Assembly (NCBI GenBank): GCA_031269485.1
Contig: JAISZC010000135.1
Location: 1 to 62,212 of the forward strand
Source of the DNA: Deltaproteobacteria bacterium
GTDB lineage: Bacteria > Desulfobacterota > Desulfarculia > Adiutricales > Adiutricaceae
Length of the DNA stretch: 62,212 bases
Reading direction: 5' to 3'
A program made the position numbers and the translations under genes. Shown piece by piece: positions 45,016 to 62,212 of this stretch; positions within the stretch are counted from its first letter, which is position 1, and every line of letters starts with the position of its first letter. The notes below the pieces were generated by a model. It made no database searches, was not told the DNA's origin, and worked only from the letters and a program-made list of their open reading frames with translations.

Positions 45016-45074
45016 TCGAGCCGTCCTTGCGTTTAGCCGACGGCAATTCCCTCGCGGTCGCCGCGGTCATGAGC

Positions 45075-45377: not shown

Positions 45378-45588
45378 TTCTTTCCTCCTTGAGGCCGCCT
45401 CGGGCGGCCTGGGCCTGGCGGCCCGTCACGCTAAGTTCAGTCCTCCGCGGCTTCCGTTCGGAGACCGGAGGGCGGTTGTCGCCTAGGAATAATCGCCGGC
45501 GCGTCGGCAAGCCGGCCCGGCGTCGACCCGACAAGGCGGCCCTGGCGCCGGCGAGGCCCGCAGGGCTCGGCCGTCGGGCCCGAGTCGG

Positions 45589-47058
45589 CTATGACAGCCG
45601 GGACAAGTCCAGCTTGGCCATGACACGGCGGACCAGCTCGTCGAACACGTCGGTCCGGTCGGCGAGCGGCTCGGCGACGGCCGGCCGCAGTTCCTCGATC
45701 TCCTTGAGGCCGTAGGCCACGCGTTTGACGTTGATGAGGTTCAGCGGGCCCACGTTGTCGGAGGTCGAGTTGCGGCCGATGGCCCCGCAGCCCAGAGTCA
45801 GCGACGGCTCCAGGGCCGAGGCCGCGCCGATGGCCGCCAAGGCGGCCGGGGCGTTGACCACGAGGCGCGAGACCGGCTTTTTGAGCCCGAACTCCCTGAT
45901 GACGGCCTCGTCTCGGGAATGGATGGCCATGGTGTGGCCGGCGCCTTCCAAAGAGAGGATCTCGATGCATTTCAGGCAGGCCTTTTCCCAGTTTTCCTCG
46001 ACAAAGAAGCCCAAGACCGGCATGAGCTTTTCGCGGGAATAGGGGAATTTCTCGCCCACTCTCGTCTCCTGGCCCAGCAGCACTCGCGCGTCGGCCGGCA
46101 CGGCCACCCCGGCCGCCTCGGCGATGTGCCGCGCCGAGCGGCCCACCAGCTTGGCGTTCATCGTGCCCCCGGGGCCCATGAGGATGCGCTCGACCCGCTC
46201 CGAGTCGCCCGGCGGCAGGAAGTGGCCGCCTTGGCGGGTCACCTCCGCCATGACCTCCCGGCGGATGGACGCCTCGGTGACGATGGACTGCTCCGAGGCG
46301 CAGATGGTGCCGTTGTCGAAGGTTTTCGAGTCGAAGATGCGCTTGACGGCCAGCGGGATGTCGGCGCTCTTTTCGATGTAGGCCGGTCCGTTGCCAGGTC
46401 CGACGCCGATGGCGGGCGTGCCGGAGCTGTAGGCCGCCTGGACCATGGCGTTGCCCCCGGTGGCCAGGATGAGGTTCATCCGAGGGTGGGTCATCAAGGC
46501 GCGCGTGGCCTCCTTGGTGGGCATGGTCAGCGACGACAGCAGATCGGCCGGCAGGCCGCGGGCGGCCAGAGCTCGCCTCAGGACGTCCACCGTCTCGAGG
46601 ATGCAGCCCCGGGCGCTGGGGTGGGGCGAGAAGATGACGGCGCAGCCGGCCTTAAGGGCGATGAGAGCTTTGAAGATGGTCGTCGACGTGGGATTGGTCG
46701 AGGGTATCAGGGCCGTCACCAGCCCCACCGGGACGCCCACCTCGAAGAAGCGCTTTTCCGGGACCTCGCGGATGACGCCCACGGTCTTCATCGGGCGGAT
46801 GTGATTGAGGACTTCGCGGGAGGCGAAGAGGTTCTTGACGACCTTGTCCTCCCAGCGTCCGAAGCCGGTCTCTTCGCGGGCCATCTTGGCCAGGCGGACG
46901 GCCTCGGCCTCGGCCGCCGCCGCCGCGGCCTCCACGGCCGCGTCGACGGCCCGCTGATCGAGCTGGCGGTAGATCTCTTGGGCCGCCAGGGCGGCCCGGA
47001 CCAAGTTTCTGGCCTCCTGGACGGACACCAGATCCCGGTCCCTGACGTCAACGGTCAT
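45589..47058 (-). CDS. eutE: CoA-acylating acetaldehyde dehydrogenase
   Basis: 489 aa (AGGAGCG SD). Aldehyde dehydrogenase fold of the EutE/PduP type (GVIREVPEK...ALIPSTNPTST..., catalytic-Cys region GTICASEQS). The C-terminal amphipathic tail is DVFDELVRRVMAKLDL. Confidence 0.88.
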   Translation of the reverse strand: MTVDVRDRDLVSVQEARNLVRAALAAQEIYRQLDQRAVDAAVEAAAAAAEAEAVRLAKMAREETGFGRWEDKVVKNLFASREVLNHIRPMKTVGVIREVPEKRFFEVGVPVGLVTALIPSTNPTSTTIFKALIALKAGCAVIFSPHPSARGCILETVDVLRRALAARGLPADLLSSLTMPTKEATRALMTHPRMNLILATGGNAMVQAAYSSGTPAIGVGPGNGPAYIEKSADIPLAVKRIFDSKTFDNGTICASEQSIVTEASIRREVMAEVTRQGGHFLPPGDSERVERILMGPGGTMNAKLVGRSARHIAEAAGVAVPADARVLLGQETRVGEKFPYSREKLMPVLGFFVEENWEKACLKCIEILSLEGAGHTMAIHSRDEAVIREFGLKKPVSRLVVNAPAALAAIGAASALEPSLTLGCGAIGRNSTSDNVGPLNLINVKRVAYGLKEIEELRPAVAEPLADRTDVFDELVRRVMAKLDLSRLS

Positions 47059-47136
47059 AAGTCGCGCTCCTGACGGAGCCGTCCGACGGGGTCGGCCGTG
47101 GGCCCGTCCCCAGGCCCACGGTCCTGACGGACGGGC

Positions 47137-47793
47137 TCAGTAGGCGGTCGGGTTGTCGGCCACGAACTCCACGGCCGCTCCGAAGGCGTCGCAGGCCGCC
47201 TTGCAGGCCGACTGGCTGCCGGTCAGCAGCCCGCCGCCGAAGTTGGTCTCCGAAGGCGGGCCGTAGAAGGCGGCCAGGCGGACGTCGGCGGCCTTCAGGG
47301 CCATGTCCAGCGCGTAGACGGCCTCCAGCGGCGGGGCGATGAGGTAGGCCAGCGAGTCGCCTTCCTTGACGTTGGCGGCCTTGGAAAGGTAGCTGCCGGA
47401 CCGCGAGATGCAATGGGCGTAGTATATGATGGTGTTGTCGTCGTTGGCCGAGACGAACCAGGCCTCGTTGTCGATGAAGGCTTTCAGGGCGTTGAGCCCG
47501 CTTCTGATCTCGGCCGGATTGGGTCCGGCCAGGACGCCCAGGATCTCGCCGGCCAGCTTGGTGTTGGCGTTGGCGGCCCCGCCGTAGAAGCTCTTGGCGT
47601 AGACGACCTCGACGTCGGCCATCTTGGTGGCTTCGTCGAGGGCGGTGTAGGTCACGTCGTCGCAGTCGGCCGTCACCAGGCCCAGGCTTTTGACGCCGGG
47701 CTTGAGACCAAGATCGCGGGCCAGCTCGGCGCTGACGTTGGGGATGATCTTGGCGGCCAGAATGGTGGTCTTTAGGGGATCGTGCTTTGCCAT
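47137..47793 (-). CDS. eutL: BMC-T shell protein EutL
   Basis: 218 aa (AGGAGAGG SD). Full-length resemblance to EutL (…LGLVTADCDDVTYTALDEATK…FYGPPSETNFGGGLLTG…). Confidence 0.9.
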   Translation of the reverse strand: MAKHDPLKTTILAAKIIPNVSAELARDLGLKPGVKSLGLVTADCDDVTYTALDEATKMADVEVVYAKSFYGGAANANTKLAGEILGVLAGPNPAEIRSGLNALKAFIDNEAWFVSANDDNTIIYYAHCISRSGSYLSKAANVKEGDSLAYLIAPPLEAVYALDMALKAADVRLAAFYGPPSETNFGGGLLTGSQSACKAACDAFGAAVEFVADNPTAY

Positions 47794-47856
47794 TGTGAGG
47801 CCTCTCCTGATGAGCCGGAAAACGGCGGGCCGCCCAAAGGGGCCCGGCCGAGGCGG

Positions 47857-48726
47857 CTAGAGCTTAAGATCGAGCCCGCTGGCCTTCTTCTCCAGCATGA
47901 GCTTGACGATGTCGGCCAGGTAGCTGCCGGCCTCCACGGCCGGGGTGCCGCCGCGGTGAATGTTCGAGACCACGGTTCTTTTGGCCTCCGGGATGTCGTG
48001 ATAGGCCTTGTAGCACAAGTAGGCCGACATGCTCTCGGCGGTCGCCAGACCAGGCCGCTCGCCTATGAGGCAGACCACCACCTCGGCGCCGACGATTTCG
48101 CTGACGTCGTCTTCGGAGCCCACCCGGCCGTACTGGACCAGGAAGGGCGGCGAGGTTTTCAGTCCCGAGGCCGCCAGGCCGTCGGTCATGGCCTTGAGGC
48201 AGTCGATGGCGTTGGCGGTCACCGCCGTCGTCGACAGCCCGTCGGCGATGAAGACGACGATTTTGGCGAGGGCGCCCACGTGAGCCTTGATCTTGGCCGC
48301 CGTCTCGGCGTCGAAGCGCCGGCCCAGATCGGGCCTGGTCAGGTAGACGTCCTTGGTGTCGCATTTGGTGCGAAACTGAGGCAAGTTGTGGCGGGCGATC
48401 CAGTCGGCTGGTATTTCGTTGAACACCGCGTCCATGGCCACGGCGTGATCGGCCCTGAACCTCAGCAAAGTGTCCGTCAGGTAGCGGGGCCCGGCGCGAC
48501 CGACGCCGATTCTGGCCGGCGTGATCTTCTTGACGGCCTTGAGGGCCTCGAGGTTGTGCGGCGAAGGCACGTTTATGACTTCTGAGAGATCGATCTCGGT
48601 GATGTCGGGCAAAATTTCCTCGGACCCGGCCGAGCGGACGGCCGCGGCCGCGACGGGCGGCGCCTGGCCGGCTAGGTCCTGCAATATTTCGGCGACGTAG
48701 CGTCTGATGTCGTTTTCGGAAACCAT
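47857..48726 (-). CDS. eutC: Ethanolamine ammonia-lyase small subunit
   Basis: 289 aa. TPARIGVGRAGPRY...FRADHA is typical of EutC. The N-terminal helix ENDIRRYVAEILQDL resembles the EutC encapsulation peptide. Confidence 0.9.
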   Translation of the reverse strand: MVSENDIRRYVAEILQDLAGQAPPVAAAAVRSAGSEEILPDITEIDLSEVINVPSPHNLEALKAVKKITPARIGVGRAGPRYLTDTLLRFRADHAVAMDAVFNEIPADWIARHNLPQFRTKCDTKDVYLTRPDLGRRFDAETAAKIKAHVGALAKIVVFIADGLSTTAVTANAIDCLKAMTDGLAASGLKTSPPFLVQYGRVGSEDDVSEIVGAEVVVCLIGERPGLATAESMSAYLCYKAYHDIPEAKRTVVSNIHRGGTPAVEAGSYLADIVKLMLEKKASGLDLKL

Positions 48727-48807
48727 CGTCCAACCCCCATGAGGTGTTGATTGTCGACGTTCGGCGCGGGCCCGGGCAAGCTCAGGCCGGCCGGCTCGTC
48801 CGGCGGC

Positions 48808-50172
48808 TCACAGAAACAGCGAGGCGTCGCCCGCCTTGGCCGTCAGGCGTCCCTTCTCGTCCATGAGCTCCCGCTTTTTCAGCCACTCGAAGAACTCCGG
48901 GGCGGGGGTCAGGCCCAGGATCTCCCGGAGGGCGGCGTCGTCGTGAAAGCTGGTGTCCTGATAGGCCAGCATGACGTCGTCGCCGACGGGCACGCCCATG
49001 TAATAATTGGCGCCGGCCATGGCCGCCAGCATGGTGGCCATTTCCTGATCGTCCTGGTTGATTTTGGTGTGATTGGTGTAGCAGGGGGCCATGCCCATGG
49101 GGATGCCCAGCAGCTTGCCCATGAAATGGTCCTCCAGGGTGGCCCGCAAGATTTGGCGGCCGTCGTAGAGGGTTTCCGGCCCGATGAAGCCCGAGACGTT
49201 GTTGAGCATGAAGGGCTTGAACACCCTGGCGAGGCCGTAGCAGCGAGCCTCGAGGGTCATCAGATCCACGCCGCCGTCGGCGTCGATGGACTGCTCGGAA
49301 CCCTGGCCGGTCTCGAAATAAAGCAGATTGGGGCCCGGGGCCTGGCCTAGGGTGTGGATGCAGTCGTAGGCCTCCCGGAGGATGGCCGCGTTGACGCCGA
49401 AGCCGTCGTTGGCCAGCTGGGTGCCGGCCAGGCTCTGAAATAGGCAGCAGGCGCGGGCGCCCTTTTCGACGGCCTGCATCTGGGTGGTCACGTGGGCCAG
49501 CACGCAGTTTTGGGTGGGGATCTCATGGCGCTGCATGAAATCCCACAGCGCGTCCAAAATGGCCTTGGTGTTGTCCACGGTGTCCTCGACGGGGTTGACG
49601 CCGAAGACGGCGTCGCCGGAGCCGTAGGAGACCCCCTCGGCCAAGGAGGCTATGATGCCCTTGAGGTCGTCCGCGGGGTGGTTGGGCTGGTTGCGGAACG
49701 ACAGCGTCCCGGGCAGGCCGATGGTGGTCGCGCACGTCGAGGGCACCTTGATCTTGGAGGCCGCGTAAACCAGATCCATGGCCGTCATGATCTTGGCCAC
49801 GGCGGCGGCGGCTTCGGCCTCCAGCCCGCGGGATATCCGCAAAATGTCCTCGCCGCCGGTCTCGTGCGACAGCAGCCAGTTTCTCAGCTCGCCCACGGTC
49901 CAGCCCTTGACGCGCCTGTATATGCCCAGGCTCAGGTCCTCCTTGAGGACCCGGGAAACTTCGTCCTTTTCAGGCGGCAGCACCGGGTTTTCGTAAATGT
50001 CCTCCAAGGTCGCCCTCGACAGGACCATGCGGGCGGCGGTGCGCTCGGTGACGGTGCTGGCGGCCCGGCCCAAAAGAACGTCGCCCGACTTTTCGTCGTT
50101 GGCCTTGGCCAGCACGTCGGTCAAGTTTTTGAACGCATAGACCTGTCCGGCCATTTTGGTCTTCAAAATCAC
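48808..50172 (-). CDS. eutB: Ethanolamine ammonia-lyase large subunit
   Basis: 454 aa from GTG 50172, with GGAGG 5 nt upstream. (V)ILKTKMAGQVYAFKNLTDVLAKANDEKSGDVLLG aligns with the EutB N-terminus. The upstream 49 codons of the track ORF were discarded. Confidence 0.92.
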   Translation of the reverse strand: MILKTKMAGQVYAFKNLTDVLAKANDEKSGDVLLGRAASTVTERTAARMVLSRATLEDIYENPVLPPEKDEVSRVLKEDLSLGIYRRVKGWTVGELRNWLLSHETGGEDILRISRGLEAEAAAAVAKIMTAMDLVYAASKIKVPSTCATTIGLPGTLSFRNQPNHPADDLKGIIASLAEGVSYGSGDAVFGVNPVEDTVDNTKAILDALWDFMQRHEIPTQNCVLAHVTTQMQAVEKGARACCLFQSLAGTQLANDGFGVNAAILREAYDCIHTLGQAPGPNLLYFETGQGSEQSIDADGGVDLMTLEARCYGLARVFKPFMLNNVSGFIGPETLYDGRQILRATLEDHFMGKLLGIPMGMAPCYTNHTKINQDDQEMATMLAAMAGANYYMGVPVGDDVMLAYQDTSFHDDAALREILGLTPAPEFFEWLKKRELMDEKGRLTAKAGDASLFL

Positions 50173-50520
50173 GGCTACCTCCAAGATGCGCCGCCGAGGG
50201 CGGCCGGCTCTCGCCGAAAGCCCGCCGGAGGGCGAGCGGCCGGCGGCGCGGCTCGTGAGGGAAGCCGCGGCCGGCCTAAGAAGCCGACGACGGGCCGCGT
50301 CCGCCCTCGTCGGCTTCAAGCTCGAGCTTAAGTTTGAGATCCTTGGGCTTGCGGTTCCAATTTAAAGGCTCCAATCTTGATTTGGCGAACCCCGCCGCGG
50401 CAAGGTTCAACTCTCCGCCGCTGGCGGCGGCCGGCCTTTGGCGCCGGCCGGCGGCTCGCGCGTCCGAGTCCGAGTCCGACTGGCCGTCGAGCCCGGGGCG
50501 GGCTTTTCGAGGCCGGCCGC

Positions 50521-51009
50521 CTAAGGTTCGAGGGGGGCGGCGCGCAAGCTGCGCCGCAGCTGCCCGTCGGCCGACTGCAAAAGGCAGGCGCGCAGCTCGT
50601 CGAGGCCTTGGCCGGTCACGCTCGACACCTTGAATATCCGCTCCGCTCCGGCCGTCGTCAAGGAATGGACGGCCCGGTCGAGCGAGACCGAGTCGGCGAT
50701 GTCCGTCTTGGTGACCACGCCGATCACCGGCGCCTTGAGGGCCAGGCTTAGCTTGACCGGCAGCCAGATCGCGCGGCGTCCGTCCATGACCATCAGGATG
50801 GCCGACGCCCGCGAGGAGTTTAGAATCAGGGCGTTGTAAAACCGCGGAATGGACAGCATCTCGCCGGGCGTGTCGATGGACTGGCCGGCGTAGTACGTCA
50901 GGGCCTGGGTTTTGGACACGTCGTTCGGACCGAGCCCCAGGGCCGCCAGAAGCGAGGTCTTGCCGGCGGCCACCGGGCCGATGACCATGAGCGGGCCTGA
51001 GCGGACCAA
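50521..51009 (-). CDS. eutP: EutP/PduV-family small GTPase
   Basis: 162 aa from TTG 51009; the alternative ATG at 50988 gives MVIGPVAAGKTSLL. P-loop GPVAAGKT, DTPGE and VVTKTD (NKxD-like) are present. Confidence 0.82.
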   Translation of the reverse strand: MVRSGPLMVIGPVAAGKTSLLAALGLGPNDVSKTQALTYYAGQSIDTPGEMLSIPRFYNALILNSSRASAILMVMDGRRAIWLPVKLSLALKAPVIGVVTKTDIADSVSLDRAVHSLTTAGAERIFKVSSVTGQGLDELRACLLQSADGQLRRSLRAAPLEP

Positions 51010-51019
51010 GAAGCCGCCC

Positions 51020-51358
51020 CTAGGTCCGCGTGACGGGCGCCGGATCGAAGCTCAGCACGTCGACGAGGGCCGCGATGGCGCCGCGCAGGGCGCTGTCGAC
51101 CGAAGCCACGTCGCCGGTGAAGATCAGGCAGCCGGTGAAACGGTCGACGAATTCGAGCTTGACGTCCCCGGCCTTGTCGGCGGCGTCGGCGGCTATGATG
51201 GCCCCCTCGCCCGGCGTGACGGTCATCAGGCCGATGGCGCCGCGCGGCTCGACTCCGATCTGGCGGCACAGCTCGGCGCTGGGATTGGCGATCATATGGG
51301 CCAAGGTGGCCTGCTTGCCCGGAACGTACTCGTGTATTTGCCGCGGCTTCACCGTCAT
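51020..51358 (-). CDS. eutS: Circularly permuted BMC shell protein EutS/PduU
   Basis: 112 aa. RQIHEYVPGKQATLAHMIANP...IGLMTVTPGEGAIIAADAADKAGDV is typical of EutS. Confidence 0.85.
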   Translation of the reverse strand: MTVKPRQIHEYVPGKQATLAHMIANPSAELCRQIGVEPRGAIGLMTVTPGEGAIIAADAADKAGDVKLEFVDRFTGCLIFTGDVASVDSALRGAIAALVDVLSFDPAPVTRT

Positions 51359-51837
51359 GGCGCGTCGGGAGCTCCCGCCAGCCGGCCGCCGGGAGGCCGG
51401 CGCGCGGCGGCCGCGAGGCCGGCGTGACGCCGCCGAGTCGACGCGCGAAGGAGCGCCAGGCGGCGGCCTGGAAAAAAATGGCCCGGTTGGGGGCGGCGGT
51501 TCGACGAGCGGCGGCGAATGGTCATGAACGTCAGCTTAACGCATTTCGTCGAATTTGGCAAACCTTTTTGGGGCTTTTTTCGGGCCGGGAGGCCCGCGAG
51601 GCCGAAAAGGGGCGGAAACAGCCCGAAACTGACGGCCTCCGCGGCCGCCCGAGCCAGGCTAACTGAGCTAAATAATTGGATTTTTTGCGGACAAAAATTT
51701 TTTTTCCAGATTCGCGATTTTCCCGGTCCGAAGCCGAAAATAAAGGTCGGCCGGCCGGCGGCGGCCTGGGCCCACAAGGGGTCAATAGCTTGAATTAATT
51801 GATTAAAACTGCAAATTCCCCCCGCCTCGTTTTTCCC

Positions 51838-51866
51838 TTGACTTGAGTCGGACGAAAGAGTAGTAT
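51838..51866 (+). promoter_or_regulatory. Sigma70 promoter (TTGACT-N17-TAGTAT) for the mttB module, divergent from eutS
   Basis: -35 at 51838-51843 and -10 at 51861-51866, in an AT-rich spacer. This implies a leader of about 315 nt before ATG 52187. Confidence 0.5.
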
Positions 51867-52186
51867 CGCAATAAATGGTAATGTAGTTAAATGCACAAAA
51901 AAACCAAAGTCGTATAGATGACTGCGTCCCGCCGGTCGCCGTCAAGCTGGCCGAACGGCGTCAGGCCGCCGCCGGTCGGACGCTGTCCGGCGGGTCGGTT
52001 CCTCTTTTTTTTGATGGCCGCGGCCGGGCATGGCCGGGCCTGGGGCCGGCGGCTCAGGTCCAGAGCCCGAAAAGGCCGCCTGAAAAATAAGGAAGCCGGT
52101 CATCAGCACTCTCGGGCGGCCTGCAAGGCGACGGCCCGATTACTCCCGCGTCACCTCACGACGCGGGCTTCCTCGGGGGATTACGT

Positions 52187-53701
52187 ATGAAGAGAGCCGT
52201 GCAAACGGGCATGCTGCTGCAGCGAGGCTGCGGGCTGACCCTGCTGACGCCGGACGAGGTCAAGGAAACCCATTACGCGGGCTTGGAAATTTTGGCCAAG
52301 ACCGGCGTGTTCGTCGATTCCGACGAAGCCCTGGAAATTTTTCACTCGATCGGCTGCGTCGTCGACAAATCGAGCAAGAGGGTCAGGATCCCGGCCCATC
52401 TCGTGGAAGCCGCCTTGGAAAGCGCCCCGTCGCAGTTCATCGTCAGGGGACGCGATCCGCAAAAGGCCTTGCGCGTCGGCGGCAAAAGGGTCAGCTTCAC
52501 CCCCTTCGGCGAAGGCGTCAGGGTCAACGATCCTTACACTGGAGAGCAGCGCGATTCCAAAAAAATCGACTTGGCCGCCATCACCCGGCTGTCGGACTGG
52601 ATCGACGAATTCGACATCATTCATCGGGCCGTGGCCTCCCAAGACGTCCATCCCGAGTCCTATCCCCTCCACAATTTCGAGGCCATGGTCCACAACACCG
52701 TCAAGCCCATCTCCTTGGGCGGCGGCAACGGCTATCTGGTCGACAAGATGATCCAGCTGGCCGCCATGGTCAGAGGCGACAAGGACTCGCTGAGCCTCGA
52801 GCCGCTGATGGTCATCAGCACCTGTCCGGTCAGCCCCTTGAGGCTGGTCAGCGAGTGCTGCGAGATCGCCATCCACGGCGCCCGCCACCGCATCCCGGTG
52901 CGCTTCACCACCATGGCCCTGTCGGGCAGCACCAGCCCCATCACCATGGTCGGCACCATGGCCGTCCAGAACGCCGAGTTCATGGCCTGCGCGACCTTGA
53001 GCCAGGCCGTCAGCAAGGGCGCGCCCATCTTCCGCAGCGGCACCTCCACCCAGCTCGACATGAAGAAGGGCGACGCCTCCGTCGGCTCGCCGGAGATGGC
53101 CATGATGGCGGCCATGAACGCCCAAATCGCCCAGTTCCACGGCGTGCCCTCCTGGACCGGCGGCACGTAGACGGACAGCAAGATTCCCGGCGGCGCCCAG
53201 GCCGGCCACGAAAAAACTCTCACCGCCCTCCTGGCCGGCTTGGCAGGGTCCAACGTCATCTACGGGGCGGGCATGCTTGAATGCGGAATGACGGTCGACT
53301 ACGGGCAGCTGCTTTTGGACTCCGACATGCTCCAGATGGTCCTCTTCCTTCTTCGAGGCGAAGAAGTCAACGAGGAAAACCTGGACCTCGAGGAAATCCA
53401 CGAAATAGGGCCCCACGGCAACTACATGATGAGCAAGCTCACCAGAAAGTTCATGCGGGCCCAGAGCCGGCCCAAATTTTTCGACCGCATGAACATGGAG
53501 GCCTGGAAGAAGGTCGGCAGCCCCGACTGCTACCAGGTCGCTCTGGACAAGGCCAAGGATCTGCTGGTCAACCACAAGGTCGAGCCTTTGAGCGACAAGG
53601 TGGCCAAGGACATCCGGGAGTTCATCGTCGAGGCCGAAAAGGAGCTGGGCGTGCCCAGCAAGAACCCCGACTACGATCCGACCAAGGGGTCCTTGGCCTG
53701 A
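52187..53701 (+). CDS. mttB: Trimethylamine:corrinoid methyltransferase MttB with an in-frame TAG (putative pyrrolysine) at 53168-53170
   Basis: Track ORFs 52187..53170 and 53240..53701 share one frame and are separated only by the TAG. Both halves are MttB-family. Readthrough gives ...HGVPSWTGGT-(TAG)-TDSKIPGGAQAGHEK..., 504 codons in total. GGGGGA SD before the ATG. Confidence 0.7.
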
Positions 53702-53825
53702 CGGCCGCGTCGGCCCTCCGCCGCCCCGCCGACCTGACGGGGCGCGGGGGCGCCTTTCCGGCCGTTTCGCTCTTTCGGCCGCCGCTCCGGCCCGCCGGCC
53801 GGCGCGGACGCTCTGCGAGGTTTTC

Positions 53826-54467
53826 ATGAGCTTTGGCTTCGCCGTCTTCGATTTCGACATGACTCTCATCGATTCCATCAAGCCCCTGACCATCAGCGCC
53901 AACCTCTTGGCCAAGGAGTTCGGGCTCGCGGAAGTCAAGTACGAGCAGGTCTACGACGCGGAGGTCTCGGTCAAGAACTGCACCTTCGAGCTGCTGTGGT
54001 CGGCCTTGTGGGGCCGCTGCGATCCGGCCTGGTATCCGGCCTACTTGGATCACATGACCGAGGCCGAGTATCGGGCGATGGAGCTTTTTCCCGGCGCCCG
54101 CGAGACGCTCGAGGAGCTCGTCCGCCGCGGCGCGCGCCTGGGGCTGGCCTCCAACCGCGATTATCCGGCCAAGGCCCTCCAGGCTCTGGGCGTGGACGGA
54201 CTCTTCGAGGCCGTGGTGGGCCAGTTCGACGTCGCCAACGTCAAGCCCGCGCCTGACATGATTTTGAAGACTTTGGCGCTTCTGGGCGCCCGGCCGCAGG
54301 ACGCCCTGTACGTCTGCGACTCGCGGGGCGATCTGCTGGCGGCGGCCGCCGCCGGCGTCAAGACCTTCGCCATGAGCACCGGCGGCCATCCGGTCGAGGA
54401 GCTTTTGAGCCTGGGCGCCTGGAAGGCCGGCGACCAGCTCGCCGACATCCTGCCCTGCTTCGTCTGA
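53826..54467 (+). CDS. HAD-superfamily phosphatase (phosphoglycolate-phosphatase-like, HAD-IA)
   Basis: 213 aa. Motif I FDFDMTLIDS, motif II LASNR, Lys motif KPAPD, motif IV VCDSRGDL. Confidence 0.8.
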   Translation: MSFGFAVFDFDMTLIDSIKPLTISANLLAKEFGLAEVKYEQVYDAEVSVKNCTFELLWSALWGRCDPAWYPAYLDHMTEAEYRAMELFPGARETLEELVRRGARLGLASNRDYPAKALQALGVDGLFEAVVGQFDVANVKPAPDMILKTLALLGARPQDALYVCDSRGDLLAAAAAGVKTFAMSTGGHPVEELLSLGAWKAGDQLADILPCFV

Positions 54468-54627
54468 AGGCCGCCGGGCCGGTTCGGGCCGAAACGCCAG
54501 GCCGGGCCAAGGCCCGCCGGCTTGGATTCGGTCCGCTTTTTCAAGTTAGCCGCAAACCGCGCCGCCGCGAAGCGTCGGCGTTCAAACCTCAGCTTGCTGG
54601 GCTATAGTCCCAAGGAGATTTCACCGT

Positions 54628-55866
54628 ATGTCAAAAATGGACGTTTCGAAGATGCTGCGCTTCAAGCCGACCAACACGGCCGAAGCCAATGAAAAGTACA
54701 TCAACGCCGCATCTCTGAATAAATTAGCCAAAAATGCCTATGAAACCAGCGACGCCGACTTTGTTAGGGCTCAAATCAAGGAAGTCATGGAACAGAACTA
54801 CGATTTGGGCGAAGTTTTAGAGGTCTACGAGATTTTCGGCGGCTACGTCAACCGTAGTTTCGGCGTGATCTGCCGTAAAGACGGCAAAAACGAGGACTAC
54901 TTCGTCCGCAAGTATAAGGCCAAATTCAACACCGAGGCCAATCCCGATGACATTCTTTATGAGCACAATCTAATCAACTTTTGTTTAGGCAACGGGCTCA
55001 AGGAAGCCGCCAAGGTCTACCAGTCCAACAACGGCACCACCATGGTCAGCCTGACGGACAAGGACGAGAACGGCAAGCAGATCAAGCGCTACTTCGCCGT
55101 TTACGACTACCTGCCCGGCGAGGACAAGTGGACTTGGGTCAACAACGAAAACAACCCCACCGAGTTCCGCAACATCGGCGCCTTGCAGGCCCGGTTCCAC
55201 CTCTACGGCCAAGGCTTCGAGCCGGGCCGGCTGGCCAAGGCCGAACCGAAGATTCAGCACCTGCTGCCCTCCTTTGTGGACTTGTTCTCCAAATTGGCCG
55301 CCCGCGACGTCCCCGACTCGATTTTTCACGCCACCTTCAATTCAAAGCTGCCGAGGATCATCGAGGTCATCAAGTCCAACCAGATCCCCGACGACGCGTT
55401 CAAGCAGATGCCCGAAACCCCCATCCACAGCGATCTGCACGCCGGCAACGTCAAGTGGGTGGGCGAGGAGTGCACCGGCATCTTCGACTTCGACTGGTCG
55501 AAAATCGACGTGCGCCTCTTTGACATCGCCTTCGCCCTGATCTACTGCTGCTCCTCATGGCGGCCCGAGACCGACGGCATCCTGCGGCTTGACGACTGCC
55601 GCTACTTCCTGGAAGGCTACAACAGCCAGCTCAAGAAGCTCCAGGGCCTGCCGCCGCTCAACGCGACGGAGAAGCAGCATTTCCCGACCATGATGGCCGC
55701 CGGCTGCCAGTATCTGATCAATTGGTGCACGACTCTTTATTTCTACGAGGATCCCACCATCGTCAACGACTACGAGGCGCTTTACTACCTGCTGCACATC
55801 ACCCGTCTGATGGACTGGATTGAAGCCCACAAGTCCGATTTGGCCAAGGTGGTGGAGGGCGTCTGA
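54628..55866 (+). CDS. APH / choline-ethanolamine-kinase-fold phosphotransferase, paralog 1
   Basis: 412 aa (AAGGAGA SD). Nucleotide-binding GGYVNRSFGV...FVRKYK. Catalytic loop HSDLHAGNV. Metal-binding FDFDWS. Confidence 0.78.
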   Translation: MSKMDVSKMLRFKPTNTAEANEKYINAASLNKLAKNAYETSDADFVRAQIKEVMEQNYDLGEVLEVYEIFGGYVNRSFGVICRKDGKNEDYFVRKYKAKFNTEANPDDILYEHNLINFCLGNGLKEAAKVYQSNNGTTMVSLTDKDENGKQIKRYFAVYDYLPGEDKWTWVNNENNPTEFRNIGALQARFHLYGQGFEPGRLAKAEPKIQHLLPSFVDLFSKLAARDVPDSIFHATFNSKLPRIIEVIKSNQIPDDAFKQMPETPIHSDLHAGNVKWVGEECTGIFDFDWSKIDVRLFDIAFALIYCCSSWRPETDGILRLDDCRYFLEGYNSQLKKLQGLPPLNATEKQHFPTMMAAGCQYLINWCTTLYFYEDPTIVNDYEALYYLLHITRLMDWIEAHKSDLAKVVEGV

Positions 55867-55932
55867 GGAGCCCCTGGCTGGGGACGGTCCTGGTGACGTC
55901 TCACCGTTTCGCAACATTTTAGGAGGTAACGC

Positions 55933-56994
55933 ATGACCGAAAAATCTCCGCAGGCTGTATTGGACGCCAAGCAGCTCAAGCATGCCAAGAGAGGCATCTT
56001 TGCGGGCGTGATGTCGGGGATCCTCTGGGGGGCCTCGGGCACAGTCCTGGGGATGGCCATCGGCTTTGAGCCTTTGGCCAGCGCCCAGGGGTCGCTTGAA
56101 GGCGACGCGCTGCTGTGCACGCTGGTGGCCATGGCCTTGTGCGGGGCCATCCTGCACGATTTCTTCGCCTCTGTCTGGGTGGCCGTCCACAACATCAGGG
56201 CCGGCAAGTTCAAAGAGTACGGCCGGACCCTCCGCACCAAGCCGGGCAAGATGGTTTGCCTCGGGGCCATCCTGGGCGGCCCCATCGGCATGAGCGGCTA
56301 CCTGCTGGGCATCACGTTCGTCAACGCCGCCTACGCGCTGCCCATCACGGCCGCCTATCCGGCCGTGGCCGCGGTGCTGGCCACCATCTTCTTCAAGGAG
56401 CGCAACCCGGCCCGCGTCTGGGTCGGCGTGGTTCTCTGCATCTTGGGCTCTTTTCTGGTTTATTACGCGCCCATGGAAGGCGACAAGGGCGCCTTCTTCA
56501 CCATCGGCATGGTTTTGACCACCTTGGCCTGCATCGGCTGGGCCACTGAGGGCCTGCTGTCGACCTACGGCATGGACATGCTCGATCCCGACATCGCCCT
56601 GGGCATTCGCGAGGGCGTGAGCGCCTTGGCCTATCTGATCTTCGTGCTCCCCATCGTCACGATCTTCATGACCACCAAATTTGGCTCCGCCACCCCCATC
56701 TGGGAGCTGGTCGTCGGCTGCTTAGGCTCTTCGGCCTTCCCCATCTACGCCTTCGGCGGCTTTTTGGGCGGCTTTTCCTACGTCTACTGGTATAGGGCCC
56801 TCAACATGACCGGCGTGGCCCGGGCCATGGCCCTCAACGTGACGTACGCCTTGTGGGGCGTCATCTTCGCCGGCCTGTTCACTGGCTTTGTGACCACCGC
56901 TCAGCTGTTCATGGGCGCCGGGTCCATCGCCGTCGGGGCCATCTTGGTTTCGGCCAATCCTCGCGAGCTCTTCAAGCTCAGAGACGTCAAGTAA
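55933..56994 (+). CDS. DMT-superfamily (EamA-like) 10-TM transporter
   Basis: 353 aa (AGGAGG SD). Two homologous halves of about 5 TM segments each, rich in Gly/Ala/Leu. Confidence 0.65.
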   Translation: MTEKSPQAVLDAKQLKHAKRGIFAGVMSGILWGASGTVLGMAIGFEPLASAQGSLEGDALLCTLVAMALCGAILHDFFASVWVAVHNIRAGKFKEYGRTLRTKPGKMVCLGAILGGPIGMSGYLLGITFVNAAYALPITAAYPAVAAVLATIFFKERNPARVWVGVVLCILGSFLVYYAPMEGDKGAFFTIGMVLTTLACIGWATEGLLSTYGMDMLDPDIALGIREGVSALAYLIFVLPIVTIFMTTKFGSATPIWELVVGCLGSSAFPIYAFGGFLGGFSYVYWYRALNMTGVARAMALNVTYALWGVIFAGLFTGFVTTAQLFMGAGSIAVGAILVSANPRELFKLRDVK

Positions 56995-57006
56995 AGGAGG
57001 AGCTCC

Positions 57007-57288
57007 ATGGCAGTATTACCCCTCCGCTTCAGGATTTTGCACATCGTCAACAAAGCTGCGGGGAAGCCCTTGAAGACCGACGAGATCTACAAGGAACTCT
57101 ACGACGAGTACTCCGGCGAGGGCCAATTCAGCCTCGATCTGATGGAAAGCCACCTGATGAGCATCAAGGCCGTCGGCCTGATCGACGCCGTCGATCCTTA
57201 TTTCGACGAGCTGGGCGAGGCCCGCTACAAGTACATCATCACCGAAACAGGCACGGCCAGGACCAAGTACCTGCCAGCCCAACTCTAA
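57007..57288 (+). CDS. Small hypothetical protein, possibly winged-helix-like
   Basis: 93 aa. Strong AAGGAGGAG SD, 12 nt after the transporter stop. No family recognised. Confidence 0.55.
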   Translation: MAVLPLRFRILHIVNKAAGKPLKTDEIYKELYDEYSGEGQFSLDLMESHLMSIKAVGLIDAVDPYFDELGEARYKYIITETGTARTKYLPAQL

Positions 57289-57302
57289 ACCCTTTCGTTT
57301 TC

Positions 57303-57346
57303 GGCGGGAGGCCCGCGGTCCGGGCCTCCCGCCGATTGCATTTTTT
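57303..57346 (+). terminator. Strong stem-loop followed by a displaced T-run
   Basis: Perfect 13-bp stem GGCGGGAGGCCCG/CGGGCCTCCCGCC (57303-57333) with a 5-nt loop. A T7 run begins 7 nt later. Confidence 0.55.
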
Positions 57347-57666
57347 TCCGTCTGACGCCAAGCCCGCGCTCCGCCGACGGGGCCGGCGCCGAACGTCGGA
57401 GTTCGAGGCTGCCCTTGGCGGCCGGGCGGTTTTTTTCTCGCGGCGTAGCGCTCGTTCGCAAGCCGCGCCGCGGAGCCCGAAAAAAAACGACGACGGCCGC
57501 GTTCGGCGCGTCAGTCGGGGCGCCGCGAGTCCAGCCGGGGGGCTGGAAGGCCGCTCAGGCCGCCAGCCGCAGGAAGCGCGGCCGATTTTCGGTCAGACGC
57601 GGGTGAAGGGCCTTTTTCTAAACTTTCTCTCTGCGAGTCGTTCGCAGGTTTACCTTGGGGTAGAGC

Positions 57667-59103
57667 ATGAATTTCTATAATTTTTTTACTGACGACCAGA
57701 AAAAAAATATCCATGAGGCTTCGCTGACCATACTTGAAGAAACCGGCATGATCGTGAAAAACGTCGATGCCTTGGAAATCTTCAAGACTCATGGTTGCCA
57801 AGTCGACGGCAAGCGGGTGAAGTTTCCGCGCAAGCTGGTCGAGGAAAAGATCAAGTCCGTGCCGCCGACCTACACCTTCACGGCCCAAGACCCTGACCTC
57901 GACGTCACCTTGCCCGGCGATCGCCCTGTCATAGTCACCGGCTCTTCGGCGCCCAACGTGATCGATCCGGTGACCGGCGAAGAACGGTACGGCACCAGCC
58001 GCGACGTGGCCAACATCGCCTATCTGATCAACGAGCTGCCCGGCTTCGACGTTTTTTCCATATCCATATTGGCCGACGACGCGCCGGCCGACATGCGTTC
58101 GCTCTACCGCTTCTACCCGGCGCTGAAGAACTGCCGCAAGCCGGTCCGTTCCAACACGCCCTCCATTCCGGACCTCGAAAAAGTTTTGGATTTGGGCTAC
58201 ACTGTCGCAGGAGGCAAGGAGGCCTATTTCGCCAGGCCGTTCATCAACCACCATTACTGTCCGGTCATCTCCCCGCTGACGTACGACGTGGAATCGACCG
58301 CGTCCATGATATATCTGGCCAAGCTGGGCCTGCCGGTCTACGGCACCATCGTCCCCAACGCGGGCATGACCTCGCCGATGAGCCTTTTGGGCACCCTGAC
58401 GATGGGCAACGCCGAGTATTTGTCGCTGGCCTTCCTGATGCAGGCCGTCAGGCCCGGGACGGGCGTCATCTACGCGGTGCTCTCGACGGTGGGCGACATG
58501 CGCAACGGCGACTACGCCCCGGGCGCCATCGAGACGGGCATTCTGCAGATGGGCCACTCCGAGATGGCCCGGTGGTACAACGTGCCCTCCGGCGGGTACA
58601 TAGGCCTGACCAACTCGCAGTCCAACGACGTCCAAAACGGCTACGAAACCAGCCTCAACACGTCCGCGGCGCTGCTGGCCGGCTCGGATTTGTTCAACAT
58701 GGGCGGCCTGCTGGGCGGCCTGATGGCCTTCGACTTCGCCAAGGCGGTCATCGACAACGAGATCGCCATGAACCTCAAGCACCTCAAGAAGGGCATCGTC
58801 TACGACGAGAACGACTTTTGTCTCGAGCTCATCGACAAGACCGGCCCGGGCGGCAATTACATGGTCCTGCCCCATACGGCCAAGAACCTCAGAAAAGTCA
58901 CCCACTACCCGTCCATCGGCGTCCGCGGCTTCAGAAGCAAGTGGATCAACGACGGGCGGCCCAACGCGGCCGACCAGGCCACGGCCCTGGCCAAGAAGAT
59001 CTTAGGCAAGCCCAATCCCAAGGCCTTCTCGGAGGAGCTGGACAAGAAAATCCGTGATCACATCCCCGGCCTGCCGGAAGGTTTGGCCGTCTGGTACGAA
59101 TAA
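57667..59103 (+). CDS. MttB-superfamily methyltransferase without an amber codon (non-Pyl type; substrate unknown)
   Basis: 478 aa. It is collinear with the interrupted mttB over its whole length and has Leu where the other gene has TAG (…VPSGGYIGL-TNSQ…). Confidence 0.8.
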   Translation: MNFYNFFTDDQKKNIHEASLTILEETGMIVKNVDALEIFKTHGCQVDGKRVKFPRKLVEEKIKSVPPTYTFTAQDPDLDVTLPGDRPVIVTGSSAPNVIDPVTGEERYGTSRDVANIAYLINELPGFDVFSISILADDAPADMRSLYRFYPALKNCRKPVRSNTPSIPDLEKVLDLGYTVAGGKEAYFARPFINHHYCPVISPLTYDVESTASMIYLAKLGLPVYGTIVPNAGMTSPMSLLGTLTMGNAEYLSLAFLMQAVRPGTGVIYAVLSTVGDMRNGDYAPGAIETGILQMGHSEMARWYNVPSGGYIGLTNSQSNDVQNGYETSLNTSAALLAGSDLFNMGGLLGGLMAFDFAKAVIDNEIAMNLKHLKKGIVYDENDFCLELIDKTGPGGNYMVLPHTAKNLRKVTHYPSIGVRGFRSKWINDGRPNAADQATALAKKILGKPNPKAFSEELDKKIRDHIPGLPEGLAVWYE

Positions 59104-59422
59104 GGCGAACGCGCGCCTGCGCGGCCGCGCCCCTCGCGGGCCGGCCGCGCCGCCTTCGACGGACCGGGCGGCCGCCGACCGTCCGATCCGCGCCGTTCGG
59201 CGGCGTCCGGTGGGCGGCGCCCGCGAACCTTGAGTCTTTGGAACGAAGGTTGATCGATGTGAAAAACCACAGTTAGGGTCAAAATCATCAAACTTTGACG
59301 CCTATTGTCAAGGTATTATTTTAATCATTAAGCTAAAATGGGATTTTTGCACATCGATCAAGGTTGGCCGTACACTGAACGAATTGGCCGTCCGCAGCCA
59401 AGCCAAACCAGGAGGTTGACCA

Positions 59423-60634
59423 ATGGATACGACTAACATGAAGCGCATTGGAGAAATAAAACAGACCCAATTTGAGAAATTTCGTGAATCATTGGTTAAA
59501 ATCAAAAAAAAGGTCGATCTTCTGTATAATTACGTTGAATCTCAGGTTTTGCATAATCAAATAGTTGAGCTTTTTAAAAATTATAATTTAGGTGAAGTTG
59601 AAGAGATATTTGAGGTCTTCGGCGGCTACACCAACCGTAGCTTCGGCGTTATTTGCCGCCAGGGCGACGTCCGAACCGAGCACTTCGTCCGCAAATATAA
59701 AGTCGAGGCGACGCCGGCCGACGTCCTGATGGAGCACAGTCTAATCAATTACGCCGTAGCCCACGGATTCCAGGAGGCGGCCGACATCGTGTTGGCCCAG
59801 GATGGACGCAGCTACGTCGAAATCAAGGAACTCAAAAACGAGAAGGAAGTAAGTCGCATTTTCACCGTCTACAGGTACCTCCTGGGACGGGACAAATACT
59901 CCTGGATCGACAACAAATGCACGCCCAAGGAGTACAAGAACCTAGGCGCCCTCTTGGCCCGCTTCCACCTGTCGGCTCATGACTTCAAGCCTTCGGACCA
60001 GGCCCATAAGACCGAGCCCAAAGTTGAAGTGCTGCTGCCAAGCTTGGCCAAAACTTTTTCCGAACGCGCCGCTCAGCCTATTCAAAGTCAGTTTCACGCC
60101 TATTTCGCGTTCAACCTGCCACGCTTGCTCGAGCATATTGAAAAAAACGCTTTGACGGACGACGAGTACGCGCAACTCCCTACGTGTCCCATTCATGGCG
60201 ACTATCACGCCGGCAACGTCAAGTTCGACGGCGAAGAAACGGTTGGTCTCTTCGATTTCGACTGGTCCAAGATCGACGTTCGCCTCTTCGACGTCAGTTT
60301 GGGGATGGTCTACTGTTGCGGCTCGTGGGACATGGTCACCGATGGCCAGCTGCGTTTGGACGACTGCCGTAGCTTTCTGGACGGCTACAATTCAACTCTC
60401 AAAGGCACGGTTTTTTCGCCACTCAAGGAAATAGAAAAAAATACCTTCGTCAAAATGTTGGCCAACGCACATATTTATCTGGTTTATTGGCTCACCGAGC
60501 TGTGGTACTACCTAGATCCCGATAACATCAACGATTACGAGGCCGTCTCGTACCTGACGCATTTCCTCAGAGGCCTCGGCGGGGTGGAGGAAAACGCTTC
60601 GGCCCTCAATTGGCTGGCGCGCTCCCAAGCCTGA
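59423..60634 (+). CDS. APH / choline-ethanolamine-kinase-fold phosphotransferase, paralog 2
   Basis: 403 aa (AGGAGG SD). GGYTNRSFGV...FVRKYK, HGDYHAGNV and FDFDWS. A clear paralog of 54628..55866. Confidence 0.78.
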   Translation: MDTTNMKRIGEIKQTQFEKFRESLVKIKKKVDLLYNYVESQVLHNQIVELFKNYNLGEVEEIFEVFGGYTNRSFGVICRQGDVRTEHFVRKYKVEATPADVLMEHSLINYAVAHGFQEAADIVLAQDGRSYVEIKELKNEKEVSRIFTVYRYLLGRDKYSWIDNKCTPKEYKNLGALLARFHLSAHDFKPSDQAHKTEPKVEVLLPSLAKTFSERAAQPIQSQFHAYFAFNLPRLLEHIEKNALTDDEYAQLPTCPIHGDYHAGNVKFDGEETVGLFDFDWSKIDVRLFDVSLGMVYCCGSWDMVTDGQLRLDDCRSFLDGYNSTLKGTVFSPLKEIEKNTFVKMLANAHIYLVYWLTELWYYLDPDNINDYEAVSYLTHFLRGLGGVEENASALNWLARSQA

Positions 60635-60815: not shown

Positions 60816-61577
60816 CTAAATATCCCGCCAGCCCATGAAGGCCTTGATGTTGCCGTAGAAAACTTTTTCCAGCTCCGAGGGGGCCAGTCCGCTGACCTCG
60901 GTGCGTAGCATTTCCGCCTCATGACGGTGGAAGGGCGCGTCGCTGCCCCAAAAGAGGCGCTCGGATCCCACGCGTCGGCAGGCTTCGAGAATCTTTCCGG
61001 GCATGGGCATGCCCGAATTTTCCAGCCAAATGTTCTCGCGTCGTCGCGCCGTCTCAATGGCGGCCTGGATGTAGACGCCGTGTCCGTGCCCCATGTGGAC
61101 CATCACGAAGCGGGCGGCGGGAAAGCGTTCTGCCAGTTGTCCGATGCTCCACGGCAGCGAGAAGGGCGGATGGCCGCTGTGGACGAAGATTGGCAAGTCC
61201 CGCTTTTGGGCCGCCTCGACCAGCGGAAAGACGCACTCGTCGTCGGCCACGAAGGCATTGAACAGAGGATGCAGTTTCAGGCCCTGAATTTGCTTGGCCT
61301 CGGCCAGCTCGACGAGCTTGTGGACGGCCGTCTCGCCGTCGGCGGGGTTGAGCCAGGCCAAGGCCGCGAACTGGTCGGGCCGACGGCGCTGGGCCTCCAA
61401 AGTCGTCCGGTTGTCGGGGTGGCTGATGATGGTCCTCTTGACGCCTAAGCGAGCCATGATTTCGCACATTTCCTCGGCGCCGACGGAGACGCCGCACCAG
61501 GACCCGAAGGCGCCCACGTGGGCGTGCGCGTCGATTTTGGGCGAGTCGGACGGGATGTAGCGGCCTGGCTGGTGCAT
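60816..61577 (-). CDS. Amidohydrolase-2 family metal-dependent TIM-barrel hydrolase
   Basis: 253 aa. KIDAHAHVG near the N-terminus, VHSGHP, VMVHMGH and GSDAPF form the typical His/Asp metal-ligand pattern. The stop codon is TAG. Confidence 0.7.
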   Translation of the reverse strand: MHQPGRYIPSDSPKIDAHAHVGAFGSWCGVSVGAEEMCEIMARLGVKRTIISHPDNRTTLEAQRRRPDQFAALAWLNPADGETAVHKLVELAEAKQIQGLKLHPLFNAFVADDECVFPLVEAAQKRDLPIFVHSGHPPFSLPWSIGQLAERFPAARFVMVHMGHGHGVYIQAAIETARRRENIWLENSGMPMPGKILEACRRVGSERLFWGSDAPFHRHEAEMLRTEVSGLAPSELEKVFYGNIKAFMGWRDI

Positions 61578-61822: not shown

Positions 61823-62212
61823 TCAGTCCGTCGAGCTTCGCAGCAGGTTTTTGACGTCGCGCGACGGGGGCGCGCCGAAAAGCCGGGCATACTCGCGGCT
61901 GAACTGCGAGGGGCTTTCGTAGCCTACCTCAAAGGCCGCGTCGGCCGCGTCGCGCCGTTCGGCCAGCATCAGGCGGCGAGCCTCGATGAGTCGCAGTTTT
62001 TTCAGAAACTGCAAAGGGCTCATGGCCGTCAGGGCCCGGAAATGCTTGTGAAAGCTGGAAACGCTCATGCCGGCCATTTTGGCCAAATCTTCGACTTGGA
62101 CGGAGCGGCGGAAGTTTTCCTTGAGCCAGCCGATGGTCGCGGCCACGTTGCGGCCGTTGCCGCCGGACTCGGCGACGCGTCTGAGGATCAGGCCCTGCTC
62201 GCCGATCAGCAG
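61823..62212 (-). CDS. AraC-family transcriptional regulator; N-terminus lies outside the window
   Basis: C-terminal HTH_18 region ...VEDLAKMAGMSVSSFHKHFRALTAMSPLQFLKKLRLIEARRLM...VGYESPSQFSREYARLFG. The frame stays open to the window edge. Confidence 0.85.
   Translation of the reverse strand: MLIGEQGLILRRVAESGGNGRNVAATIGWLKENFRRSVQVEDLAKMAGMSVSSFHKHFRALTAMSPLQFLKKLRLIEARRLMLAERRDAADAAFEVGYESPSQFSREYARLFGAPPSRDVKNLLRSSTD

Follow-up and report, generated by a model that had tools for sequence, protein, structure and literature searches.

In a 62,212-nucleotide stretch of a Deltaproteobacteria genome (GenBank assembly GCA_031269485.1, contig JAISZC010000135.1), the host being an Adiutricales-like (Desulfarculia) bacterium and the whole stretch being referred to here as the window, seven plus-strand genes are transcribed divergently from an ethanolamine utilisation (eut) microcompartment operon. 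We consider it fairly probable that this region encodes a kinase- and corrinoid-dependent N-demethylation module for choline-type amino-alcohol phosphates, of the MthK/MthB kind described in Eubacterium limosum, that would feed the eut pathway. The pairing of an MttB-family methyltransferase with a kinase and an EamA transporter is already known; what is new is its conserved coupling to a HAD phosphatase, to extra kinases, to a pyrrolysine (Pyl)-type MttB and to the eut microcompartment.

Organization of the Gene Array

The array starts with a gene for a Pyl-type MttB-family methyltransferase (mttB, 52187-53701, +), with PF06253 matches on both halves and a match to TIGR02369, whose frame is interrupted by a sole in-frame stop, a TAG (UAG) at 53168-53170 (+). 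It is followed by a HAD-IA small-molecule phosphatase (53826-54467, +; PF13419, 101 bits), by kinase 1, an MthK-like core kinase of the APH/choline-kinase fold (54628-55866, +; PF01636), by an EamA/DMT transporter that is a candidate choline importer (55933-56994, +; PF00892), and by a conserved 93-aa protein (57007-57288, +) whose gene is kept between those of EamA and MttB across phyla. Downstream of the latter, a terminator-like, G+C-rich hairpin was found (57301-57335, +), with a 15-bp stem including 13 G-C pairs and the T-rich tail TTGCATTTTT at its 3' side. The array ends with an MthB-like, non-Pyl methyltransferase of the MttB superfamily (57667-59103, +; PF06253, 280 bits; no in-frame stop) and with kinase 2, a paralogue of kinase 1 (59423-60634, +; PF01636). 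Thus, kinase 1 is located three genes upstream of the non-Pyl mttB and kinase 2 directly downstream of it. All seven genes were present as listed in the initial annotation of this DNA, which had also noticed the divergence from eutS (51020-51358, -) and the hairpin after the 93-aa gene, and the observation of the array is confirmed, far beyond chance.

Conservation of the Module and Its Linkage to eut Genes

A scan with a kinase profile over one genome per species yielded 77 loci, the neighbours of which were mapped with phmmer markers. A kinase and an MttB gene were taken as linked when they lay within 4 kb, and eut genes when they lay within 10 kb; counts for long loci cover the 50 loci of at least 15 kb. 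The kinase was accompanied by the same MttB clade in 52 of the 77 loci, and in 37 of the 50 long ones, the shared core across loci being kinase-(EamA-93 aa)-MttB, with EamA directly 3' of the kinase in 23/50 long loci. The HAD gene was added in 32 of these 37 kinase and MttB loci, and eut enzymes or shell genes were detected in 25 of them. The co-conservation of kinase, MttB and eut genes expected from the initial annotation was strongly borne out by these numbers. In contrast, its proposal that each MttB gene is followed by a kinase of its own did not prove to be a conserved logic, as the unit that is kept is kinase 1-EamA-93 aa-MttB, with the kinase upstream.

The linkage to eut was found in at least eight gene orders and two phyla. 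The module is divergent from eutS in Adiutricales-like metagenome-assembled genomes (MAGs) and in a Desulfarculia MAG, follows eutA in Desulfosporosinus and eutP in Sporomusa acidovorans, precedes eutS in several Peptococcaceae, and adjoins shell genes in Acetobacterium and in a Syntrophomonadaceae MAG. Four Peptococcaceae loci (L064, L067, L074, and L075), although from another phylum, came very close to the window in gene content: they combined one or two copies of Pyl-MttB with the kinase, EamA, the 93-aa gene, the non-Pyl MttB, HAD and eutSPBCA, and additionally contained PF01633 choline/ethanolamine kinases, a PHP-domain protein and a sigma-54 activator. In the Firmicutes loci, the genes for a corrinoid protein, an MT2 methyltransferase and the HAD enzyme come after MttB. 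The closest homologues of the window kinase and MttB, with 70-92% identity, belong to MAGs labelled Deltaproteobacteria or Candidatus Adiutrix and to strain Smac51. Adiutrix is classified in the Thermodesulfobacteriota, class Desulfarculia, order Adiutricales, and Candidatus (Ca.) Adiutrix intracellularis is a homoacetogenic symbiont of the termite gut.

The same kinase family was also found paired with two further MttB clades (L030 and L052; L040, L048, L051, L070, L072, and L078), which are 19-22% identical to the window non-Pyl MttB and are often accompanied by EamA and the 93-aa gene. In L078, this divergent kinase-MttB pair adjoins eutSPBCAL. Kinase-coupled MttB systems seem to be more diverse than the single example described.

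Relationship to the MthK/MthB System

E. limosum grows on choline by removal of one methyl group, stopping at dimethylaminoethanol (Jiang, Kountz, Zhang, and Krzycki 2025, PMC12155760). According to that work, the APH-fold "phosphotransferase" MthK is a choline kinase that also moves phosphate from dimethylaminoethanol phosphate to choline, recycling it without a phosphatase, whereas the non-Pyl MthB methylates the corrinoid protein MthC with phosphocholine only, and tetrahydrofolate then receives the methyl group through MthA. The mth cluster also contains a gene for an EamA transporter, and co-localised mthK/mthB homologues were reported in Clostridia, Negativicutes and delta-proteobacteria, with Sporomusa malonica and Ca. 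Formimonas warabiya being named (PMC12155760). The proteins of these two organisms belong to the kinase and MttB families found here. Neither a phosphatase, nor a Pyl-type partner, nor a link to ethanolamine utilisation or a microcompartment is mentioned in PMC12155760, and our full-text literature searches retrieved no other paper describing such a microcompartment link.

The statement of the initial annotation that no system with this gene combination had been described is therefore out of date, as a set of MttB, kinase, EamA, corrinoid protein and MT2 was published in 2025, delta-proteobacteria included. On the other hand, its central idea, that an amino alcohol of the choline type is imported, phosphorylated and then demethylated by an MttB enzyme, matches the chemistry of MthK and MthB in E. 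limosum (PMC12155760).

Compared through the published description, the window resembles the MthK/MthB/MthC/MthA system of E. limosum in that a non-Pyl MttB is encoded beside a kinase of about 400 aa with the APH fold, together with an EamA transporter. In E. limosum, the substrate is phosphorylated before demethylation, an order of events that, by analogy, may apply here too, and the corrinoid protein and MT2 are encoded in the homologous clusters of other organisms. Unlike in E. limosum, the window lacks these two partners, adds the Pyl-MttB, the HAD phosphatase, the second kinase paralogue and the putative winged-helix protein of 93 aa, and has the module physically coupled to a eut microcompartment. 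The gene order differs as well, with the kinase upstream and co-directional in the window and divergent in E. limosum. Choline and tetramethylammonium methanogenesis in Methanococcoides is likewise reported as a corrinoid-dependent choline demethylation without trimethylamine, but through a non-Pyl MtmB homologue, from a superfamily different from that of the MttB-like proteins (PMC13044021).

The Non-Pyl MttB-Family Methyltransferase

The protein encoded at 57667 showed 63-66% identity to the kinase-adjacent MttB of Firmicutes and 55% to a member from Thermoleophilia, and the kinase-adjacent non-Pyl MttB proteins formed one clade in a neighbour-joining tree. Its best match among solved structures was MtgB of Desulfitobacterium hafniense (248 bits, 33% identity; PDB 2QNE/9YCE), which belongs to the same TIM-barrel family and for which residues Y97, R312, H348, and F356 have been proposed to bind glycine betaine (PMC13080624). 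All four of these residues are replaced in the window protein, the corresponding positions being invariant S, G, N, and L in 49/49 clade members. The clade also has seven invariant basic residues that MtgB lacks, which would fit a larger, anionic substrate. The initial annotation had asked for the position of this protein relative to MtgB and three other characterised MttB-family enzymes; of these, MtgB was compared, with a different pocket as the outcome, and the neighbour-joining tree put the protein in the kinase-linked clade.

The Pyrrolysine-Type MttB

The TAG at 53168-53170 aligns exactly with Pyl334 of Methanosarcina barkeri MttB (PDB 7XCL). A PYLIS-like element (53168-53270, +) starts at this same TAG, scoring 73 bits with the Rfam family PYLIS_3 (RF02510; gathering score 38, E = 5e-13). 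The TAG, followed by an intact and conserved downstream frame, was found in all ten related genome loci and in ten termite-gut metagenome contigs. A TAG-interrupted MttB was present in 17/50 long loci, and each of the 24 split MttB genes in the surveyed loci was interrupted by TAG. The Pyl-type status assigned originally to the first mttB was upheld by the alignment with Pyl334, the PYLIS element and the retention of the TAG in all the related loci.

The window protein shares with the Pyl-dependent MttB of the M. barkeri MttB/MttC system (PDB 7XCL, PMC9842639) the UAG at Pyl334, the PYLIS element, the match to TIGR02369 and, by alignment columns, residues G110, M249, and Y364. These three residues have roles as catalytic neighbours, and Gly110 and Tyr364 are fully conserved in Pyl-MttB proteins (PMC9842639). 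However, both proteins are only 38% identical, E and W are found in the window in place of T111 and Y329, and no MttC or MttP is encoded next to the window gene, which forms part of an operon-like array with the phosphatase and the kinase. With TIGR02369, the two halves, scanned separately, scored 360 and 185 bits, the sum of which (about 545) is barely over the equivalog cut-off of 525. The window has a tRNA-Lys as its sole tRNA, and neither pyl genes nor tRNA-Pyl were found in it.

The split MttB proteins fell into three groups, namely the window clade, a Firmicutes clade with kinase neighbours, and M. barkeri MttB together with the protein of L055. Residues E111 and W329 were common to both kinase-linked Pyl clades and absent from M. 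barkeri MttB and L055. As a signature of kinase-linked Pyl-MttB this pair was discarded, because both residues turn up widely in diverse Pyl-type sequences (of 50 truncated representatives, about 20 have E111 and about 13 have W329) and are thus not specific.

A sister clade of Pyl-MttB was represented by the sediment metagenome contigs L092, L095, L106, and L120, in which the gene lies beside an open reading frame (ORF) of 807 aa resembling flavoproteins of the dimethylglycine/sarcosine dehydrogenase type. Subunits similar to those of electron transfer flavoproteins, a 666-aa oxidoreductase-like ORF and TRAP-transporter-like ORFs were also present, all these assignments coming from N-terminal sequences only. 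No corrinoid-protein homologue was detected near Pyl-MttB in these four contigs.

Kinases, Phosphatase, and 93-aa Protein

The Brenner motif HSDLHAGN and the motif FDFDW are invariant in the kinase family, and both window kinases keep both of them. Homologues of kinase 1 with 41-43% identity were found in Sporomusa, Desulfosporosinus, Acetobacterium, and Ca. Formimonas, where they adjoin the same MttB clade. Kinase 2 is 45% identical to kinase 1, and these two, together with a third clade (L030/L052, beside another MttB clade), are paralogues that occur in the Adiutricales-like lineage only. Identity between orthologues was 55-57% for kinase 2, 73-82% for kinase 1 and 73-92% for the rest of the module, and the G+C content at third codon positions (GC3) of kinase 2 was 0.65, versus 0.82-0.89 in its neighbours. 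This low GC3 and low orthologue identity point to relaxed or diversifying selection and, as judged from these comparisons, kinase 2 is a lineage-specific, fast-evolving extra paralogue. The possibility, raised along with the initial annotation, that the kinases were in fact homoserine or antibiotic kinases was rejected, as the scores were far below the NCBIfam cut-offs: 64-71 bits versus 271 and 51-53 bits versus 256 for the homoserine kinase ThrB, and 19 bits versus 680 for the antibiotic kinase APH(9).

Motif I of the HAD protein is DFDMT. The protein scored under every NCBIfam equivalog cut-off, the best one being that of phosphoglycolate phosphatase (83 versus 180 bits), and only generic HAD-IA subfamily models were passed. 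Regarding the 93-aa family, 10 of 14 members gave weak matches to PadR, ArsR or HTH_20 models (best E = 1.6e-4), which suggests that the protein is probably a small winged-helix regulator of the PadR/ArsR type. Its single-sequence AlphaFold2 model was of low confidence (pLDDT 61, a per-residue confidence score) and was not used for fold search.

The Adjacent eut Microcompartment Operon

The eut operon extends over 37338-51358 (-) and was delimited by Pfam and NCBIfam matches. Its genes are, in order, eutS, eutP, eutB, eutC, eutL, an aldehyde dehydrogenase gene, two BMC-H genes, a eutJ-like gene, a gene for a 234-aa unknown protein, eutN, eutQ, an adenosyltransferase gene, eutA, a pduS-like gene and a BMC-T gene. 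The signature of EUT microcompartments was found here, with EutB and EutC, shell proteins of the BMC-H, BMC-T, and BMC-P types and the aldehyde dehydrogenase; compared with known EUT systems the set is full, as it also comprises EutA, an EutT-like adenosyltransferase, EutQ, EutP, and a PduS-like protein. EutB matched Listeria EutB (PDB 2QEZ) with 539 bits and looks canonical. The maintenance of eut beside a methyltransferase and kinase module suggests that its substrate may be made intracellularly from choline and not only taken up. Our literature search yielded nothing usable on the activity of EutBC on N-methylethanolamine.

The choline trimethylamine-lyase CutC/CutD microcompartment is likewise devoted to anaerobic choline catabolism, with acetaldehyde inside a microcompartment. 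However, CutC cleaves the C-N bond and releases trimethylamine, whereas the route proposed here would strip methyl groups first and give off ammonia or methylamine. Within the surveyed part of the window, no glycyl-radical enzyme was detected.

The 234-aa ORF (42675-43379, -), located in the interval between the eutJ-like gene and eutN, has a GC3 of the coding type and no Pfam match.

The Cluster of Ca. Formimonas warabiya DCMF

The array of strain DCMF (L080, 1-15000; CP017634.1, 6237472-6258689) shows the order pylSc-pylB-pylC-pylSn-corrinoid protein-MT2-Pyl-MttB-sigma-54 activator-kinase-EamA-93 aa-MttB-HAD, with cobalamin biosynthesis genes coming after HAD. A second DCMF locus (L047) encodes a Pyl-MttB and a kinase, followed by an ORF with a choline-kinase-like GGLTN motif, noted from its sequence only. 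Fermentation of choline by DCMF gives about 3.1 acetate and 1.3 monomethylamine, and trimethylamine does not support its growth. This ratio of products would fit the loss of two methyl groups. An alternative put forward by the authors of that work, via glycine betaine and sarcosine reductase, accounts for the products equally well.

Proposed Pathway and Alternative Explanations

In the pathway that we propose, EamA would import choline and kinase 1 would convert it to phosphocholine, from which the MttB encoded at 57667 would transfer one methyl group onto a corrinoid protein whose gene lies outside the window, with tetrahydrofolate as the next acceptor, leaving dimethylaminoethanol phosphate. 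The Pyl-MttB would carry out a second demethylation, that of the tertiary amine, and the HAD enzyme would dephosphorylate the product, freeing a C2 amino alcohol (ethanolamine or N-methylethanolamine) that EutBC would convert to acetaldehyde and ammonia, or methylamine where one methyl group remains. Kinase 2 might serve to phosphorylate an intermediate again or, like MthK, to recycle phosphate. For the window clade, we infer the substrates, the steps past the first demethylation and the flow into the microcompartment. The interpretation offered by the initial annotation is, overall, partly supported. Since many unrelated anaerobes keep the module beside eut, choline may be fully degraded in them without release of trimethylamine. 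A more specific proposal, which we regard as possible but doubtful, is that the kinase-linked Pyl-MttB proteins act on dimethylaminoethanol or its phosphate, joining the MthB-like enzyme, the kinases and HAD in a trimethylamine-free route from choline to ethanolamine or N-methylethanolamine and into the Eut microcompartment. If true, a pyrrolysine enzyme would for the first time have a substrate beyond simple methylamines.

Several observations weigh against this pathway. A rival explanation is that the neighbouring genes share no pathway at all. The module would then stop at dimethylaminoethanol, the HAD enzyme would free this product, the Pyl-MttB would be an ordinary trimethylamine enzyme, and eut would take free ethanolamine; the genes would cluster because choline, trimethylamine and ethanolamine share the phospholipid head-group pool and a need for B12, which favours co-regulation or co-transfer. 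To our knowledge, no enzyme acting past dimethylaminoethanol has been described, and E. limosum halts there. The persistence of eut proximity through at least eight gene orders and two phyla speaks against a mere neighbourhood, although 14 of the eut-linked loci are from Desulfosporosinus and the counts are thus not independent. In addition, many eut-linked loci, including most of those of Desulfosporosinus and Sporomusa, have a single non-Pyl MttB only and would therefore not reach ethanolamine, as one demethylation of a quaternary amine is insufficient. Also against a mere neighbourhood, extra kinases recur (kinase 2 here, PF01633 in Peptococcaceae), and HAD is nearly universal despite the ability of MthK to recycle phosphate without a phosphatase. 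The retention of G110, M249, Pyl, and Y364 and a TIGR02369 score that roughly reaches the cut-off suggest that the Pyl-MttB could be a plain trimethylamine enzyme; on the other side, no MttC or MttP lies beside the window gene. In the nearest other Pyl-MttB clade (about 55% identity, from sediment metagenomes), kinase, HAD and eut genes are all missing from the neighbourhood, and these unrelated surroundings speak against a link across the whole family. A canonical EutB, which counts for the proposed pathway as well, also agrees with the use of free ethanolamine, and the cobalamin genes after the DCMF cluster fit a B12 island, but the same strain has Pyl-MttB-kinase pairs, does not grow on trimethylamine and leaves around one N-methyl group per choline. 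Taking both sides together, we judge the absence of a shared pathway to be somewhat unlikely.

The other points against choline demethylation of the MthK/MthB kind concern its partners and its substrate. A corrinoid protein and MT2 are absent from the 62-kb window according to the phmmer markers and the Pfam survey, with no search aimed at a RamA-type activase. The initial annotation had noticed this gap and took it to weaken the model or else to point to partners encoded in trans; the gap itself stands, but not the weakening, because Firmicutes clusters encode both proteins right after MttB, which makes their absence here a lineage-specific relocation. E. limosum MthB retains the R312 of MtgB (PMC13080624), whereas Gly occupies this position, in an alignment to MtgB only, in the window MttB and in all 49 clade members, and E. 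limosum MthB (WP_341455952.1) and MthK (WP_052237066.1) were not among the best 120 matches to the Acetobacterium (L062) queries. For these two reasons, we term the window genes MthB-like and MthK-like and not orthologues. The S/G/N/L pocket, which differs from what is known of MthB, and these missing matches would also agree with another substrate, such as methylated aminopropanol, homoserine or serine betaine, or a species derived from glycerophosphocholine, the likeness to MthK/MthB being then at the family level only; moreover, at least three more MttB clades are found beside kinases (L030/L052, a Desulfobacterales clade, and the Pyl types), which implies several substrates. We consider this improbable, as the choline-growing S. 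malonica and Ca. F. warabiya carry exactly this clade by the kinase and are listed among the organisms with mthK/mthB homologues (PMC12155760), and neighbours such as eut and the choline/ethanolamine kinases speak for C2 amino alcohols. Finally, the lack of pyl genes and tRNA-Pyl in the window might indicate that the TAG is a true stop, the first mttB a pseudogene and only the second half of the module functional, but the precise coincidence of the TAG with the Pyl position, the PYLIS element, and the intact frame downstream of the TAG in the ten genome loci and ten termite-gut contigs make this very improbable.

In the gut, trimethylamine, a compound linked to cardiovascular disease, derives mainly from choline, and the sole anaerobic alternative of which we know strips one methyl group and excretes dimethylaminoethanol. 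The linkage described here suggests that many anaerobes, among them acetogens, sulfate reducers and termite-gut Desulfarculia, mineralise choline fully. If so, the methyl groups would enter the Wood-Ljungdahl pathway and the C2 unit would end in acetyl-CoA, and both the reading of mttB and eut genes in metagenomes and the models of trimethylamine balance in the gut would change. The proposal also provides a testable role for bacterial pyrrolysine and would explain the presence of Pyl-MttB in Ca. F. warabiya despite its lack of growth on trimethylamine.

Control Region and Other Features of the Window

The divergent control region between eutS and Pyl-mttB (51359-52186) spans 828 bp. At 51838-51866 (+), a promoter scan of this spacer revealed a sigma-70-like site, which precedes by about 45 nt the 12-mer TCGTATAGATGA (51910-51921, +), present once in the window. 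Exact copies of this 12-mer were found upstream of Pyl-mttB in six related MAG loci (L003, L006, L007, L008, L011, and L012, twice in the last one); a role as operator or leader element is conceivable. Close to eutS, another conserved block was observed, AGCTTAAC...ATTTGGCA. A sigma-54 promoter in the conserved TTTGGCA block near eutS was considered and rejected, as neither the spacing nor the GG/GC elements match such a promoter. An Rfam scan detected no riboswitch in the leader or in the intergenic gaps.

Outside this region, a cobalamin riboswitch (RF00174, 80 bits) was detected at 33734-33929 (-), upstream of a gene of the xanthine/uracil permease family (PF00860) at 32281-33579 (-). Such a transporter is not usually found under a B12 riboswitch and may import corrinoids or lower-ligand precursors. 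Two segments differ in composition from their surroundings. One is a low-GC island at 3974-5323 (-), with 43% versus about 65%, which encodes an ADP-ribosylglycohydrolase of 449 aa (PF03747). It separates the shikimate-pathway gene aroQ from that of chorismate synthase and has the appearance of foreign DNA. The other, a second gene of low GC3 (22457-23572, -), encodes an ATPase with AAA_15, AAA_21, and DUF3696 matches and a defence-like architecture, and lies by unannotated ORFs and an RdgC-like protein. Finally, just past kinase 2, genes were found for an Amidohydro_2 protein (60816-61577, -) and for the C-terminal helix-turn-helix part of an AraC-family regulator (61823-62146, -); an amidohydrolase-like ORF, recognised by sequence, also comes after the kinase genes in the second DCMF locus (L047).

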